Virus record (IMG/VR): IMGVR_UViG_3300027798_000135
Span: 1-33,068 of that record
Strand: one strand, 5' to 3'
Length of the DNA stretch: 33,068 nucleotides
From: a virus
Lineage: Duplodnaviria; Caudoviricetes
The notes beneath the pieces are model-generated. The model was not told the origin of the DNA, did not search any database, and saw nothing but the letters and a program-made list of their open reading frames with translations. Both the position numbers and the translations under genes were made by a program. Below are positions 5,104-26,578 of the stretch, one piece after another. Positions within the stretch are counted from its first letter, which is position 1, and every line of letters begins with the position of its first letter.

Positions 5104-5532
5104 ATGCTAACTAAGAAAAAAGATGTATCAATCAAACAATTAAAAGATTTATATTATGCTCAAAGACTTACCCATATACGCCTACACGATATGATGCACC
5201 AGTTGGGACTATTAGGCATTGAAGATAATCAGCCTTTAGGCGCAGATATAGGAGCATTAAAAATTGTAAGTTTAGTAGATGAGACATTTGAATGCGATGT
5301 GTTAAAAAAAGATAGAAGTTTAAAAACTACTTTTGGTCGTAAGGCTGCTGCTTATTTATTAAGGCGATACACTAAGTTAAGCCTCAAAGATATAAGCATA
5401 TACTCAGGCACTAAGGACCACACAACCGCAATACATAACATAAAACAAGCAAACAACCTAATTGACACGGAAGATTGGTTTAAAGACAAATTAAAAAGAA
5501 TTTGTCAAAAGATTGAACTTATTGAAAATTAG
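5104..5532 (+). CDS. protein with DnaA C-terminal (domain IV) DNA-binding domain
   Basis: R-x-x-AAYLLRRYTKLSLKDI...KDHTTAIH matches the DnaA domain IV signature (SL-x-x-IG...RDHTTV-x-H). Confidence 0.75.
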   Translation: MLTKKKDVSIKQLKDLYYAQRLTHIRLHDMMHQLGLLGIEDNQPLGADIGALKIVSLVDETFECDVLKKDRSLKTTFGRKAAAYLLRRYTKLSLKDISIYSGTKDHTTAIHNIKQANNLIDTEDWFKDKLKRICQKIELIEN

Positions 5533-5542
5533 TGTATATTTG
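5513..5542 (+). promoter_or_regulatory. Bacteroidota promoter for the replication operon
   Basis: TTG (5513-5515) - 19 nt - TATATTTG (5535-5542), the consensus spacing. Confidence 0.75.
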
Positions 5543-5551
5543 CAGATATAA

Positions 5552-5643
5552 AAAGACATAGACGTACTACGAACCGACTATGTGTTTAGTGGTTAAATAA
5601 TAATAACCCTGGTAGTTCGTAGCTATCGGGGTTTATTTTTTTT
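5552..5643 (+). ncRNA. structured 5' leader: two hairpins with complementary loops, the second a terminator-like hairpin
   Basis: Stem ACATAG/CTATGT enclosing CTACGAAC (5567-5574); stem AACCCTGGTAG/CTATCGGGGTT containing GTTCGTAG (5615-5622); T tract up to the ATG. Confidence 0.6.
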
Positions 5644-6336
5644 ATGGCAAAAGACCCTGCATTCCTATTTTATAGCAGCGACTTTTTAAATGGAGTAGCT
5701 GATTTAACAATGGAAGAGAGAGGACAATTTATTACTCTCTTATGTTTACAACACCAGAAAGGTACACTTACAGACAAAACCATTAGGTTATCTTTAGGTT
5801 CGGTTTCGGTTGATGTTTTGAGCAAGTTTTCAAAAGACAAATTCGGAAATTTTTACAATAACCGACTAAGTAATGAGATTGAAAAACGCATTCAATTTAC
5901 TGAAAGCCGCAGAAACAATGGCTCTAAAGGTGGTAGACCTAAAAATAATACAAAACCATTAGGTTTACCTAAAGATAACCTTATGGAAGATGTAAATGAA
6001 AATGAAAATGAAGATATAAATATAAATAAAAGTAAGTGTACATTTGACCAGGTTTACGAATATATGGCAATCAGGATAGGAACAGAAGTAGCAAAGATTG
6101 AAGCCGAGAAGTTTGTAAATTACTACGAAAGCAATGGGTGGAAAGTAGGTAAGAACCCTATGAAAAGTTGGGGAGCAGCAGCAAATAATTGGATAACAAA
6201 CACTAAACAATATGCAAAAAGAACTACAAACAATCAACGAAAACTTACAAAAGGAGAACAATTTAACCTTGACGGCTACAACCTTATCAACGCTACTACC
6301 TTCGGAGCAGGAGATTATGACCGCCTTTTTGGGTGA
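5644..6336 (+). CDS. replication initiator / replisome organiser (DUF1376/YdaU-like N-terminus)
   Basis: PAFLFYSSDFL...LTMEERGQFITLLC N-domain; GSKGGRP linker; C-domain FVNYYESNGWKVGKNPMKSW-x-AA. Confidence 0.8.
   Translation: MAKDPAFLFYSSDFLNGVADLTMEERGQFITLLCLQHQKGTLTDKTIRLSLGSVSVDVLSKFSKDKFGNFYNNRLSNEIEKRIQFTESRRNNGSKGGRPKNNTKPLGLPKDNLMEDVNENENEDININKSKCTFDQVYEYMAIRIGTEVAKIEAEKFVNYYESNGWKVGKNPMKSWGAAANNWITNTKQYAKRTTNNQRKLTKGEQFNLDGYNLINATTFGAGDYDRLFG
5774..6033. repeat. iteron-like repeats and AT-rich tract: putative replication origin inside the initiator gene
   Basis: ACAAAACCATTAGGTT is identical at 5774-5789 and 5950-5965 in different reading frames; extra TAGGTT/ACCTAAA half-sites; A-rich tract at 5992-6033. 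Confidence 0.6.
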
Positions 6337-6973
6337 GAGGATAAGAAGCCTTAATCAAACAATGCTGCATCAGAACCTGATTTACATTATGCAGTTAGTA
6401 GGCATAAACGTAATACCAGACAAAGTTAAGTTAGCAGTTTTAGAGGATTGGATAAGGAGTGAGTACGGAGGCTTTACAATAAACGAGATTAAAGTAGCGT
6501 TTAAGCAAATGATAGCCAATGACTTTATAGACCACTACCAGAACTTTAGTCCTGCATACTTTAGTCAGGTAATGGATAGGTATAAGAAAAAAGCAAACGA
6601 AGTTAGAAAAATGATGCCACAAGAACGAGTAGAAGCAATCCCACACTTAACCGATTTAGAGATAATTGATTACTCTTACCAGGAATATAAGGTTCTTGAA
6701 AATAGAACTTTTGACAGGTTGTTTAACCCATTAAGCGTATTTACTAAGCTTAATAGTACAGGCATCAAGGTATGGACAAAAGAAGATGGCGCACTTGCCA
6801 AAAAGAAACTAATGGATATAATAACCTTTAAGGCAAGTAAAATGGACTTTGCAACCGCAAAGCAGTACCGGGACGAATGGACGGAAAGTTGGTTAAAGAA
6901 CCAAGCCAGAGCCGTAGCCGTATCTTTATTTTTTGAGGAGCAAATAAAAATTGGCAAAGTATCGTTTTCTTAA
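6212..6973 (+). CDS. hypothetical replication protein (helicase loader-like position)
   Basis: Directly follows and overlaps the initiator; helical protein with FTINEIKVAF...YQNFSPAYF. Confidence 0.5.
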   Translation: MQKELQTINENLQKENNLTLTATTLSTLLPSEQEIMTAFLGERIRSLNQTMLHQNLIYIMQLVGINVIPDKVKLAVLEDWIRSEYGGFTINEIKVAFKQMIANDFIDHYQNFSPAYFSQVMDRYKKKANEVRKMMPQERVEAIPHLTDLEIIDYSYQEYKVLENRTFDRLFNPLSVFTKLNSTGIKVWTKEDGALAKKKLMDIITFKASKMDFATAKQYRDEWTESWLKNQARAVAVSLFFEEQIKIGKVSFS

Positions 6974-7986: not shown

Positions 7987-8225
7987 AACACAGAAATTAT
8001 TTAGACCATTACAGAAGTAACTACGAAATGGTGCAGAACGGATATGTAAGGAATATAGATTTAGACATCTTAAAAATGTATGAGCATATTTATCGCAAGT
8101 ATATGAGTCCAGATTTTATCTTAACTGTATGGTGCAGCCATTGTATATTTGATATGATTAAAAGGCTTTACGAATGGTACGATTTACAACCAGAACCAAA
8201 GAAAAAGAATGCAAAGGGTAATTAA
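7977..8225 (+). CDS. hypothetical protein with CxxC
   Basis: WCSHC motif; start at 7968 or 7977. Confidence 0.6.
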   Translation: MEIEHRNYLDHYRSNYEMVQNGYVRNIDLDILKMYEHIYRKYMSPDFILTVWCSHCIFDMIKRLYEWYDLQPEPKKKNAKGN

Positions 8226-8913
8226 TTTTAGCGGTGGCAAAACTTCTGCTTATATGACTATCCAGGAATATAAGCCAGGAGACATAGTATTGTTTTGCGA
8301 TACTATGAGAGAACACCCTAAGACCTATAAATTTATTAATGACTTTGAAGCATTTGAAAATATACCTGTAACAAGAATAAGTTACGAAGGTGGCTTTGCC
8401 GGTATGTTAAAAAAGAACAAGGCTTTACCTAATCAGTTCAAAAGGTTCTGCACAATAGAACTAAAGATTAAAACGGCTAAAAGATATTTAAGAAGCATAG
8501 GCGTAAGAGAATTTGAAAACTTGGTAGGCTTTAGATATGACGAACCAATGCGAGTAAGCAGACGTACCCAAAGATTTAAGAAGGTACACGATAAGTTCCC
8601 TTTGTTTGAAAGCAAAGTTACTAAGCAAATAGTAAATGAGTATTGGAGCAAAAAGCCTTACAATTTAGAAATACCTTCTATATTAGGTAATTGCACTTTG
8701 TGTTTTATGAAAGGTAAAAACGCTATCTTAGCAATATTAAGGGAGTTCCCAGAACTTGCAGACGAATGGATAGAAGATGAGAAAAGAAGCAAGTACACTT
8801 ATCTTAACGGAGTAACAATAGAAACGCTTAAAAATATATCACAGAATAACTTGTTTAAGGAATTTGATTTAGAAAACATAAACCCTGCGTATGACTGCGC
8901 TTGTACTACTTAA
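8209..8913 (+). CDS. PAPS-reductase-like PP-loop protein with Cys cluster
   Basis: PP-loop NFSGGKTS, DT-x-REHP-x-TY, RFCT-x-ELK, GFRYDE, GNCTLCFMK and terminal CAC. Confidence 0.8.
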   Translation: MQRVINFSGGKTSAYMTIQEYKPGDIVLFCDTMREHPKTYKFINDFEAFENIPVTRISYEGGFAGMLKKNKALPNQFKRFCTIELKIKTAKRYLRSIGVREFENLVGFRYDEPMRVSRRTQRFKKVHDKFPLFESKVTKQIVNEYWSKKPYNLEIPSILGNCTLCFMKGKNAILAILREFPELADEWIEDEKRSKYTYLNGVTIETLKNISQNNLFKEFDLENINPAYDCACTT

Positions 8914-8915
8914 CT

Positions 8916-9395
8916 ATGGCAAACTTTATACACCCGACCGCTATCATTGGCGATAACGTAATTATTGGAGACGGAAACTACATTGGTGCTTATTGTATAA
9001 TCGGAGACCCTGCCGAACATAAGAAGTTCTGGAATAAAGAAAAGGGCAAAGTTTACATAGGCGATAACAATGTTATTACAGGACTTGTAACAATAGATGC
9101 AGGAACTGAGATTGATACCTTTATAGGAAATAATTGTTTTATAATGAAACACGCACACATCGGACACGATTGCACTATTTTAGACAATGTAACAATTAGC
9201 TGCGGAGCAAAAATAGGTGGGCATTCTATTGTAGATAAAGGTGCTAATATAGGACTTAACGCAGTTCTACACCAGTTTGCAAACATCGGAGAGAATTGTA
9301 TGGTGGGGGCAAGTGCCTTTGTAAAGGGAGATGCAAAACCAAATACTAAATATGCAGGAGTACCGGCAAGGGAAATAGGCTCAAACATAAGATAA
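8916..9395 (+). CDS. hexapeptide-repeat (left-handed beta-helix) acyltransferase, LpxA/NeuD/PglD-like
   Basis: IHPTAIIG, repeated IG-x-x-x-x units, HIGHDC, VLHQF, YAGVPAR. Confidence 0.88.
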   Translation: MANFIHPTAIIGDNVIIGDGNYIGAYCIIGDPAEHKKFWNKEKGKVYIGDNNVITGLVTIDAGTEIDTFIGNNCFIMKHAHIGHDCTILDNVTISCGAKIGGHSIVDKGANIGLNAVLHQFANIGENCMVGASAFVKGDAKPNTKYAGVPAREIGSNIR

Positions 9396-10072
9396 TGAAA
9401 GTAGCTATTTTATTACTTGCACAAAACAGACACGACTTAACTCAGCGTGTAATTAAGCAAAACTTTTTTAACTCTGGTTACAATGCCGATTGCTTCTTAA
9501 TAGATAACGGCAGCGACACACACGAAAACTTTAGCTACCCTTTTGCCGGTTATGACTTATCAAAAGAAAAGAGGGGCATAGCAGCCGGAGTAAACGCAGG
9601 ACTTAGGATAACTCAGAACTATGATGCAGTTTGTTTATTAGCTAATGATATTTTATTACCGCAAGATTGGTTAGCTAAGTTTGTTTTGTTTGCACAACGA
9701 ATAGAGAAGACAGGCATAATAGGAATACATTGCGTAGAAGATTTGCCGCCATTAATAGACGGGGTACATAAAACGCATACACCCTTTGGCGATAACTTTA
9801 TCACTCGTGAACTTATAGATGCAGTTGGCGGTTACAATACTGAGTATGACCCTTACGGAATGCAAGACAGAGATTATGCAGAACGAGCAACAATATCAGG
9901 CTTTATTAATTACTACCTTCCGGATATGAGGTCAGAACACATAGGACACGATGTAGGCAATGGAACAGATTACAGACGAATGAAAGACGAAAGTTTAGGA
10001 CGGGCGCAAAGTGTATGGGAAAAATACCAAGACATATACCACAACCAAAAGAATATAAGATGCGAATTTTAA
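9395..10072 (+). CDS. glycosyltransferase, GT2-like (GT-A fold)
   Basis: LIDNGSD, GIAAGVNAG, ANDI, VGGYNTEY-x-x-YGMQD-x-DY-x-x-R. Confidence 0.85.
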   Translation: MKVAILLLAQNRHDLTQRVIKQNFFNSGYNADCFLIDNGSDTHENFSYPFAGYDLSKEKRGIAAGVNAGLRITQNYDAVCLLANDILLPQDWLAKFVLFAQRIEKTGIIGIHCVEDLPPLIDGVHKTHTPFGDNFITRELIDAVGGYNTEYDPYGMQDRDYAERATISGFINYYLPDMRSEHIGHDVGNGTDYRRMKDESLGRAQSVWEKYQDIYHNQKNIRCEF

Positions 10073-10085
10073 TAAAAAATCAAAA

Positions 10086-10448
10086 ATGAAATATTCGTCA
10101 AGCTTTACACACGATTTAAATTTTGGAGAACTTGCAGAAGATTGGGTAAAAAATATTTTTTCTAATGGTAGCAAAGTAGAAGTTAAATGTGATACCAAAG
10201 CACATAGTACTGGTAATATATTTATAGAATTTGAGTCAAGGGGTAAGCCATCTGGTATAGCAACTACCGATGCTAATTATTGGGTATATAAAATAAATGA
10301 GATTAACTTTGCCATTATATTTGATGTTATAAGATTAAAAGAAAAGTTAAGGTATTATTATAAAAATAATATGTATATAAAAAATGGTGGCGATAATAAT
10401 ACTTCAAAAGGTTTTTTAATACCAATAACAGAACTACTAAAAAAATAA
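10086..10448 (+). CDS. PD-(D/E)XK-like nuclease, AT-rich apparent insertion
   Basis: GELAE...VEVK-x-D...TGNIFIE...SGI-x-TT-x-A-x-YW...SKGFLIP; flanked by ATGCGAAT direct repeats. Confidence 0.6.
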   Translation: MKYSSSFTHDLNFGELAEDWVKNIFSNGSKVEVKCDTKAHSTGNIFIEFESRGKPSGIATTDANYWVYKINEINFAIIFDVIRLKEKLRYYYKNNMYIKNGGDNNTSKGFLIPITELLKK

Positions 10449-10449
10449 A

Positions 10450-11445
10450 ATGCGAATACTTTGTATAACTTCTGCTAACTCAGGCGTAGGACTGCATAGA
10501 ATAATGATGCCGATAGTACACTTAGAAAAAGAGTACGCACTTATTACCGATGTATTGAATGACGAACTACTTGAGCAGGGTTGGGACATTGTGTTAATGA
10601 ATAGAATGCTTAACGAGATTGATGCAAAGCAAATGGACACCTGGCGAACTAAGTACGGCTTTAAGTTAGTAGTCGATAACGATGACCATTGGGAACTTAG
10701 CGAAAGCCATCTTCTATATTACCGATACAAATACAATAACATAGGCAAACAGATTACCGACTACTTAAAGATTGCAGACCTTTGCACCTGCACACACGAA
10801 AGGTTAGCAGGAGAGATAACCCCATTTAATAAGAACGTACACATCTTACCAAACGCTTTACCTTATGGGCAAGAGCAGTTCCAGGATAATAAGACAGAAG
10901 ATTACAAAGTAAGATTGTTTTGGTCAGGTAGCGGAACGCACGAACGAGATTTAGAAATACTAAGGCAGCCGTTTAAAAGGCTACAAGGTATGAATATAAG
11001 AACTGTAATAGCAGGTTACAACGATGCGGAGAAACCTATCTGGGATAAAATGATTGATGCCTTCACTTGCGGTTTAAAACTTAACCCTACGATTTATAAC
11101 TATGCAAGGGTTACGGAATATATGGGTGCTTATACGGATAGCGATATTTCAGTTATCCCTTTAGTAGATAATAAGTTTAACACTATGAAGTCAAACCTTA
11201 AGGTATTAGAAACGGCTGCAAAAAAGAACCCTGCCATAGTTAGCCACGTTAATCCTTACTTAGATATGCCCGTTCACTATGTAAGAAGCCAAAAGGATTG
11301 GAACATACATATAAGGAATTTGGTTAATGATGCGGATATGCGAAAGGAAAGCGGACAGAAGTTGTTTGAGTTCTGCCAAAAGAAGTATAACTTTGATGAG
11401 ATAAATTTAGATAGAAAGTATATTTATAGTAAACTATGCCAATAA
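10450..11445 (+). CDS. glycosyltransferase, GT-B (GT4-like) fold
   Basis: SGVGLHRI-x-x-P, VVDNDD-x-W, ILPNAL, WSGSGTH-x-x-D, PL-x-DNKFN-x-x-KSNLKVLE. Confidence 0.8.
   Translation: MRILCITSANSGVGLHRIMMPIVHLEKEYALITDVLNDELLEQGWDIVLMNRMLNEIDAKQMDTWRTKYGFKLVVDNDDHWELSESHLLYYRYKYNNIGKQITDYLKIADLCTCTHERLAGEITPFNKNVHILPNALPYGQEQFQDNKTEDYKVRLFWSGSGTHERDLEILRQPFKRLQGMNIRTVIAGYNDAEKPIWDKMIDAFTCGLKLNPTIYNYARVTEYMGAYTDSDISVIPLVDNKFNTMKSNLKVLETAAKKNPAIVSHVNPYLDMPVHYVRSQKDWNIHIRNLVNDADMRKESGQKLFEFCQKKYNFDEINLDRKYIYSKLCQ
11398..11426 (+). promoter_or_regulatory. putative phage late promoter (ATATTTA motif)
   Basis: GATAAA...TATATTTATAG; the same core precedes the genes at 17407, 23733, 24354 and 26579. 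Confidence 0.45.
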
Positions 11446-25964: not shown

Positions 25965-26486
25965 ATGCCTTGCGCTTTAACTCAAAATTATAGCTTAGAT
26001 TGTAAAGACAGTTTAGGTGGTATTACTGAGGTTTATTTCATAGCAGCAGCAGATGTTACTTCTACAACAGAAGCAAGTGGTGTTATTACCGCACTTGTAA
26101 AAGCATCTGGTAAAAAGTTTTTCAAATACGAACTTGTAAAAGGCACTTCTCAATTAGTTGAGAATGTTAATGCAAGTGTAGAAAACGGAACTATTTTTTA
26201 TGCTCCTGAATTGACCATAGTATTAAACAAACTTCAAACTAACACAAGAAACGAAATCTTGTTGTTGGCTCAAAACACATTAGTAGCAGTTGCCAAAGAT
26301 AACAATGGCGCATTCTGGTACTTAGGCAAACAAAGAGGCTTAGACCTTACAGGCGGTAGCGCAGGTACAGGAACGGCGATTGGGGATAGAAGTGGTTACA
26401 CTTTAACCTTCACAGGTGCAGAAGCTGCCCTTGCTCCTTCAGTAAACTCTACTGTATCAGCAGCACTTACTACACCAGGTACTTAG
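25965..26486 (+). CDS. major tail (tube) protein
   Basis: C-x-L...CKDSLGGI-x-x-VYF, ENGT-x-FY, GD-x-SGYTLTF. Confidence 0.7.
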   Translation: MPCALTQNYSLDCKDSLGGITEVYFIAAADVTSTTEASGVITALVKASGKKFFKYELVKGTSQLVENVNASVENGTIFYAPELTIVLNKLQTNTRNEILLLAQNTLVAVAKDNNGAFWYLGKQRGLDLTGGSAGTGTAIGDRSGYTLTFTGAEAALAPSVNSTVSAALTTPGT

Positions 26487-26510
26487 GTTGTTTTGGTTTT
26501 GTATATAGAT

Positions 26511-26546
26511 GCCCTCGCCTTTAATTAGGTGGGGGTTTTTTATTTT
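26511..26546 (+). terminator. intrinsic terminator
   Basis: GCCCTCGCCT-ttaatt-AGGTGGGGGT followed by a T tract. Confidence 0.8.
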
Positions 26547-26578
26547 GCAAACATTCGCAGTTAATTATATTTATAGTT
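26545..26578 (+). promoter_or_regulatory. putative late promoter, 5 nt before a GTG start
   Basis: TTGCAAACA-N12-TATATTTA-TAGTT-GTG. Confidence 0.55.

Follow-up and report, generated by a model that had tools for sequence, protein, structure and literature searches.

We analyzed the window, by which we mean the whole of a 33,068-base phage record from freshwater (98% complete), and identified in it a leader of 97 bases (about 5547 to 5643) that contains two hairpins and lies 5′ of a likely DNA-replication gene (Table 1). The loops of the two hairpins match each other, and comparison with relatives indicates that this match is real and well beyond chance; since the relatives swap letters yet keep the match, the hairpin tips most likely pair as RNA. 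Our favored reading, to which we give a probability of roughly 0.55, is that the leader is a kissing-loop attenuator, in which the loop-loop pairing (the kiss) opposes a predicted terminator and sets read-through into likely replication genes. Covariation speaks to the pairing itself, and the direction of its effect is something that we infer. The attenuator reading has a parallel in the guanidine-IV riboswitch, where, according to the accessible text of PMC11611296, the kiss hinders the complete terminator and promotes read-through, and growth of the stem strains the kiss.

Table 1. Features of the leader and its neighboring genes (window coordinates)
Feature	Position	Strand	Details
Upstream gene with Bac_DnaA_C helix-turn-helix	5104-5532	+	Pfam PF08299, E 5e-11; promoter overlaps gene end
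Promoter, Bacteroidota-type	5513-5542	+	Weak -33 TTG, 5513-5515; -7 box TATATTTG, 5535-5542; predicted start near 5547
Hairpin 1	5552-5587	+	10-bp lower stem, 1x1 mismatch, 2-bp upper stem, 10-nt loop; RNAalifold
Loop-1 code CUACGAA, 5′ kiss partner	5567-5573	+	
Linker	5588-5610	+	Invariant at 5588-5598; candidate antiterminator helix with 5604-5610; conservation, constrained folds
Hairpin 2, intrinsic-terminator-like stem	5604-5634	+	-16.7 kcal/mol
Loop-2 code UUCGUAG, 3′ kiss partner	5616-5622	+	YUNR start, in 43/43 leaders
U tract adjoining start codon (ATG 5644)	5632-5643	+	Sequence
Likely replication initiator, DUF1376/YdaU-like, 230 aa	5644-6336	+	Iteron-like repeats, 5774-5799 and 5950-5986

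The window has PHROGs matches to terminase, portal, head protease, tail and endolysin. Among the 50 plus-strand open reading frames (ORFs) scanned against PHROGs, we found no integrase and no clear repressor, the sole repressor-like match being marginal (E 0.004 over 25 residues). A first-pass annotation of this DNA had described a phage with no recognizable integrase or repressor, which holds for the integrase and, that one marginal match apart, for the repressor. Promoter boxes of the form TANNTTTG point to a Bacteroidota host; the promoter consensus for Bacteroidota, along with a G at -5, is given in the accessible text of PMC6847099. The -7 box was found in 126 of 126 family contexts. The -33 element is weak, as it is reduced to a TTG 19 nt upstream of the -7 box. 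Folding of the window leader predicts both hairpins, and the consensus fold that RNAalifold builds from relatives has these two stems too, both loops being open, in agreement with the two-hairpin leader that had been annotated. All of the sequences quoted for that leader are in place, as is the T tract described as running into the initiator ATG. A further hairpin (5572-5594; -5.6 kcal/mol), which rivals hairpin 1 in the window, was not taken as conserved because its energy drops to 0 in some relatives.

A window-wide search with the family covariance model found no further copies of the leader; it returned the leader itself, its reverse-strand echo, and a 15.7-bit match at 26455. A generic scan of the window for kissing leaders gave one poor antisense match, and the other window copies of the kiss 7-mers lie in coding sequence only. 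At 26510-26550, after the 25965-26486 gene, there is a G+C-rich hairpin with a T tract, probably an ordinary terminator.

In the window alone, the loop match is only moderately unlikely (among 100,000 shuffles, an 8-mer match arose in 405 and a 7-mer match in 2,176), and it is therefore the covariation in relatives which is decisive. A protein search gave 80 loci, of which 4 were left out because the match lacked the N terminus or the locus lacked upstream DNA; among the 76 whose upstream DNA was inspected, 74 carry the leader and 2 carry a different one. A search with the linker pattern gave at least 120 loci of about 180, and the protein-found and pattern-found loci together yielded, among the matches listed, 43 distinct leader cores. 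Across these 43 leaders, both partners change in 5 of the 7 pairs of the kiss while 300 of 301 cells remain paired, as compared with 3 of 12 pairs changing on both sides in hairpin 1 and, among the 9 pairs counted in hairpin 2, 2 changing on both sides and 4 on one side. The kiss has a covariation score of 0.358, where shuffles give 0.153 and slid partners no more than 0.089; the covarying cells reduce to few events, with at least 8 pair replacements among six codes. The full 7/7 match is found in 120 of the 121 contigs with a full leader (drawn from 123 loci with distinct contig names, L161 to L200 being outside the count), which carry six different 7-letter codes, and a mismatch in the kiss is tolerated in one record (L044, which is the same as L125). 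Both the compensatory changes between the loops and the retention of their complementarity in homologues, each of which the first-pass annotation had put forward as a check, were thus found.

That annotation had also described an exact complement of 8 nt. Such a complement is present in the window, but what is conserved is 7 bp, the eighth pair, which involves the stem-closing G5615, being A.G in 5 and U-G in 2 of the 43 leaders. The pair flanking the kiss on the other side is A.C in 43 of 43. We accordingly take the kiss to be the 7 bp between 5567-5573 and 5616-5622, as the match ends exactly at the loop. Its two invariant pairs are accounted for by the YUNR with which loop 2 opens in every family leader. 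In hairpin 1, the arms 5552-5561 and 5578-5587 are joined by the extra pairs C5563-G5576 and G5564-C5575, which leave the 10-nt loop, and where the window has a G.G mismatch, 32 of the 43 leaders have C-G and 10 have U-G. Among the non-Watson-Crick cells of the stems, 115 are G-U, none is A-C and 9 are of other kinds; this abundance of G-U in the absence of A-C points to an RNA made from the plus strand. The G-U-rich stems also bear on a reading at the level of DNA, in which the two 7-mers would serve a dimeric protein as operator half-sites at a spacing of 49 bp. The kiss is purely Watson-Crick and a gene for a DNA-binding protein lies just upstream, as such an inverted repeat might lead one to expect. 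However, both 7-mers sit exactly in the loops of those stems and the code is unlinked from the upstream protein, identical copies of which carry different codes in 10 sets, and we regard this reading as extremely improbable.

The gene behind the leader (5644-6336) had been called the replication initiator, and we likewise consider it a likely one. A DUF1376 match was obtained in 40 of 108 homologues of its protein, and the protein itself matches the PHROGs entry "primosomal protein" (E 3e-7). The label stays at "likely" because the window's own protein has no match in Pfam and a fold search with the initiator model gave nothing at an E of 0.001 or below, the best being a DnaD-containing model at E 0.044. 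The label also draws support from repeats within the gene, where the segments 5774-5799 and 5950-5986 hold a 16-nt direct repeat that is perfect and palindromic at its core, along with an inverted repeat of 20 nt (95%); exact copies of the 12-nt repeat core occur in these two segments only, and together they may be an iteron-like origin.

The first-pass annotation had assigned the leader to the initiator. Relatives tie it instead to the head of the replication module, as six types of first gene, initiator-like and nuclease-like, follow it. Two of the six are DUF1376-like initiators; from their N termini, we take the other four to be two initiator-like types (one DUF4373-like), an HNH-like type and a GIY-YIG-like type. 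Any one code is found with between 2 and 5 first-gene types. When the code is mapped onto a tree of the upstream protein, whose rows were de-duplicated by protein and code (a choice that favors changes), it does not cluster: 33 changes are counted, and shuffling gives a mean of 33.2. Given the unclustered code and the many first-gene types, the leader behaves as an exchangeable module that heads replication genes. In a sizeable share of relatives (L082, L087, L093, L108, L116 and others), HNH-like and GIY-YIG-like genes stand directly behind the leader and ahead of the initiator. When window positions 5644-6973 are set beside L047, L088 and L101, four different initiator-like genes are seen to replace one another behind a leader and ahead of an overlapping downstream gene (6212-6973 in the window) that both stay the same, and two of the four have a C-terminal domain in common with the window protein.

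As an attenuator, the leader might work as follows. Hairpin 1 would fold first, displaying loop 1 for about 50 nt of transcription, and the linker would pair briefly with the base of the 5′ arm of the terminator. On leaving the polymerase near the U tract, loop 2 would kiss loop 1 and a fraction of the polymerases would read through; in the alternative outcome, the terminator would zip fully, transcription would stop, and an RNA of about 95 nt would be released. The leading candidate for tipping this balance would be a trans action of the released RNA. When both loops are kept open, the terminated fold has an advantage of 7.3 kcal/mol in the window, and of 6.9 to 12.9 kcal/mol in the 43 leaders, over a fold that lacks the lower terminator stem. 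Perfect 7-bp kiss helices are worth 6.8 to 9.6 kcal/mol, and the accessible text of PMC4138328 describes kisses of 6 to 7 bp as about as stable as a duplex. Because the kiss helix is thus worth about as much as the terminator gap, the two states appear to be near balance. The gap rises with kiss strength (rho 0.89, over six codes that amount to six non-independent points). Five RNA-labelled runs share 5 to 7% of words; four are contigs, mostly of relatives, and silent on ends, strand and level.

None of the 11 linker columns varies, which for the pattern-found loci is partly so by construction; the linker is also present in 74 of the 76 protein-found loci. Before the 3′ arm exists, linker positions 5588-5595 are predicted to pair with 5604-5610 (probability 0.88 to 1.0). 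The helix forms in 43 of 43 constrained folds as against 35 of 2,000 linker shuffles, a comparison which rests on an invariant strand, and it is family specific at best, since among distant leaders (see below) 0 of 14 beat 95% of shuffles. Hairpin 1, the 7 steps of the kiss and hairpin 2 add up to 31 to 36 bp in 15 of 15 compact leaders, the two hairpins contributing 4 to 15 and 12 to 23 steps and the linkers being 11 to 19 nt long; the lengths of the two hairpins trade off (rho -0.79, in essentially two lineages). Such linkers come close to, or fall short of, what a straight stack would require, and the maximal reach falls short of the stack in 7 of 14 distant leaders, although this geometry is a rough estimate that ignores bends. 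In the window leader, which was measured by hand (the script had counted weak extra pairs), the 16- to 17-nt linker could still span a 32-bp stack, and the kiss and the full terminator may therefore coexist.

Such coexistence is the basis of another reading, in which the kiss would help termination or protect the short RNA, so that the small RNA would be the product and read-through mere leakage. The match is confined to the loop and its flanking pairs are broken, so the stems need not open, and linker length in the family does not strictly exclude both structures. Yet the element always lies between the promoter and genes that need to be expressed, and distant leaders have complements of 9 to 12 nt that would be hard to fit into a closed loop; on balance, we think this reading rather unlikely. 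An orphan riboswitch or protein-binding leader, whose ligand would stabilize the kiss, would account for a topology like that of guanidine-IV and Gd4v and for the invariance of the linker and of the bases beside the kiss. It is harder to square with a kiss in which 5 of 7 positions vary, given that guanidine-IV conserves nucleotides in and around its pseudoknot (accessible text of PMC9788692), or with distant leaders that have a common geometry and not a common sequence, and we consider it quite unlikely. In an improbable further alternative, control would be translational, with structure near the start codon, or a 6-codon upstream ORF (5580-5600), gating initiation at the first gene. About 10 nt separate the end of the stem from the ATG, initiation in Flavobacterium is tuned by structure at -20 to +20, and 123 of 126 contexts have an intact upstream ORF; against this, the U tract is retained throughout, non-coding sequence follows one leader of the same type, and the ORF loses its stop in 3 of 126 contexts and is broken in L548, where the core of the linker is kept. 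For these last two reasons, we also rejected the ORF (MCLVVK) as an essential leader peptide. The rep pseudoknot of ColIb-P9 is a precedent for translational control of a replication leader. Mimicry of a tRNA anticodon by loop 2, many examples of which read YU-NNN-RN, was rejected because the purine at the sixth position is missing in three of the six codes; some of the anticodons implied by loop 2 are, to our knowledge, not normal bacterial ones.

One possible extension of the kissing-loop attenuator, of which we are less than half persuaded, is that the terminated 95-nt RNA accumulates and, through its free loop 2, pairs in trans with loop 1 of newly made transcripts, blocking the cis kiss and shutting down the replication genes by code; it might thereby act as a timer, in copy-number control or in superinfection exclusion. 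The YUNR of loop 2 fits such a role, this motif having been reported for antisense recognition loops (accessible text of PMC4485353), and loop 1 would be exposed ahead of the synthesis of its cis partner. Most pairs among the six codes pair poorly with each other, all 15 datasets that have at least two contigs contain more than one code, second leaders with a different code occur in 2 of 5 other phage records, P4 CI RNA offers a precedent, and no clear repressor was found. On the other side, some codes cross-pair at 6 to 7 of 7 positions, kiss pairs change more than stem pairs at p = 0.06 only, and YUNR is found in only 4 of 16 distant leaders (with U at its second position in 13 of 16). The tree of the upstream gene shows a random distribution of codes, though the genomes are mosaic throughout, and the small number of same-code contigs per dataset is explicable by assembly collapse. 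An apparent avoidance of the same code within a dataset (1 of 28 pairs, with 5.3 expected) was set aside as a possible assembly artifact. We would advance, with similar reserve, the broader speculation that control by RNA only is widespread in Bacteroidota phages, the cis kiss passing the first transcripts and terminated leader RNAs jamming those that come later as well as co-infecting phages of the same code.

Across the window, no Rfam family matched at its gathering score, in keeping with the earlier view that this is not a named RNA family. There were 11 weak matches near the leader; the trpB motif (RF04312) was rejected, as it reached 23.4 bits against a gathering threshold of 59. In 15 distant loci, the only match above the gathering score was DUF805b (L266:568-600), away from the leader. 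A close likeness is with guanidine-IV (mepA) and Gd4v, which also have two hairpins, a loop-loop pseudoknot, a 3′ hairpin that is a terminator (predicted, in our case) and a similar size. They differ, Gd4v being compared by description, in that here 5 of the 7 kiss pairs vary freely and there is no match in Rfam; they depend on a ligand and precede transporters or enzymes (guanidine-related and transaminase genes), whereas the leader is apparently ligand free and belongs to phage replication, with initiator-like and nuclease-like first genes. P1/P7 C4 is an immunity RNA akin to P4 CI, and the C4 models in Rfam gave no match to the leader. The plasmid antisense copy-number systems (ColE1 RNAI/RNAII, the pT181/pIP501 attenuators and the ColIb-P9 pseudoknot) resemble it in their short YUNR recognition loops, in exerting control on a replication leader and in their variable loop codes. 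However, they use a promoter on the opposite strand, while in the leader both partners are on one strand; no conserved opposite-strand promoter was found in the 126 contexts, nor any reverse -7 box in the leader, and reverse boxes further downstream are confined to two of the six gene types, with 10 of 42 contexts in the first and at most 5 of 16 in the second. In P4, transcription is terminated prematurely ahead of the replication genes by CI RNA, which comes from the leader (accessible text of PMC4825925). This RNA is like our leader in preceding replication genes, in its internal complementarity and in premature termination (here predicted), but it is a processed RNA with an antisense segment flanked by two targets, whereas here there is one 7-bp pairing, in a single copy per leader.

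In the accessible text of PMC10690425, Fremin, Bhatt and Kyrpides (2023) list DNAVirus_187, a 49-nt candidate with 122 sequences, mostly from freshwater phages, which lies directly upstream of DUF1376 (54) and DUF4373 (36) genes; it is listed there as not a terminator by RNIE, with no function proposed. Judged by habitat, family size and downstream domains, and not by sequence, it may be hairpin 2 of our leader; at 49 nt, it is too short for the 56-nt span of the kiss. For the fhsA motif, Narunsky (2024) proposed that a terminator loop pairs with a preceding hairpin and so prevents termination (accessible text of PMC11109978). That motif is a bacterial metabolic leader, its mechanism is speculative, and our leader has no Rfam match. 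We did not find the leader described in the literature that we searched, the accessible portions of PMC5737381 and of the Minerva preprint included.

Leaders of this kind extend beyond the family. We collected 150 distinct initiator or nuclease starts with a -7 box 60 to 190 nt upstream (165 starts without the box were left out); 56 of the 150 are outside the family and form 40 clusters, 31 of which have a terminator-like stem. A perfect complement of at least 7 nt between the 5′ part and the inner terminator was found in 17 of these 31 clusters, compared with 3.8% of 930 cross pairs, and six more complementary distant leaders, missed by the parser, are visible by eye. The distant leaders take two forms, a compact hairpin-hairpin form and one with an unpaired 5′ segment of 8 to 12 nt; in L266, L303, L320, L356, L362 and L564, which are of the latter form, the unpaired first 9 to 12 nt of the transcript match the top of a long terminator. 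Among 16 hand-picked hairpin leaders, the spacing is 45 to 56 nt in 14. The family covariance model, run on 89 loci, found L548 (89 bits) and, weakly, L485 and L468, and missed the other distant leaders, which thus appear to share geometry and not sequence. In the related leaders of L468 and L485 (600-700 in each), the kiss is 6 bp long and a small middle hairpin lies clear of the terminator. A strict detector gave 7 matches in 166 non-family upstream regions (shuffled mean, 1.0), several of them not true kisses. Judged from these comparisons, the leader belongs to a broad class of such elements in phages of the Bacteroidota type, for which Rfam has no family.

The scan of the five other phage records that gave two second leaders missed the long leader of G005. 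In G003, a second leader of the kissing type (L608, minus strand, 15635-15380) stands before a tRNA-like sequence that has the acceptor, D and T arms and, in place of the anticodon arm, a long insert; ARAGORN makes no call there. No ORF of at least 46 aa starts within about 570 nt after this leader, and its position before a tRNA-like, non-ORF sequence favors control of transcription.

The leader offers a compact handle on how replication is timed or limited in Bacteroidota phages that have no recognizable repressor. Six codes in one family, with more in distant ones, make up a natural allele series, so that the disrupt, rescue and swap tests of the kiss have in effect already been written by evolution. 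The leader would also extend the kissing-loop terminator design past the guanidine riboswitches to a form that is apparently ligand free and recodable. If the codes act in trans, they could supply a small orthogonal set of transcription controls for Bacteroidota. If the RNA-only reading is true, replication timing and immunity groups would both arise with neither a repressor protein nor an antisense promoter; the leader would be switch, signal and address at once, its code diversifying as the loops of plasmid incompatibility do. Elsewhere in the window, 8209-11445 holds PAPS-reductase-like and hexapeptide-repeat-like genes and two glycosyltransferase genes, which possibly serve the modification of DNA or of the virion.
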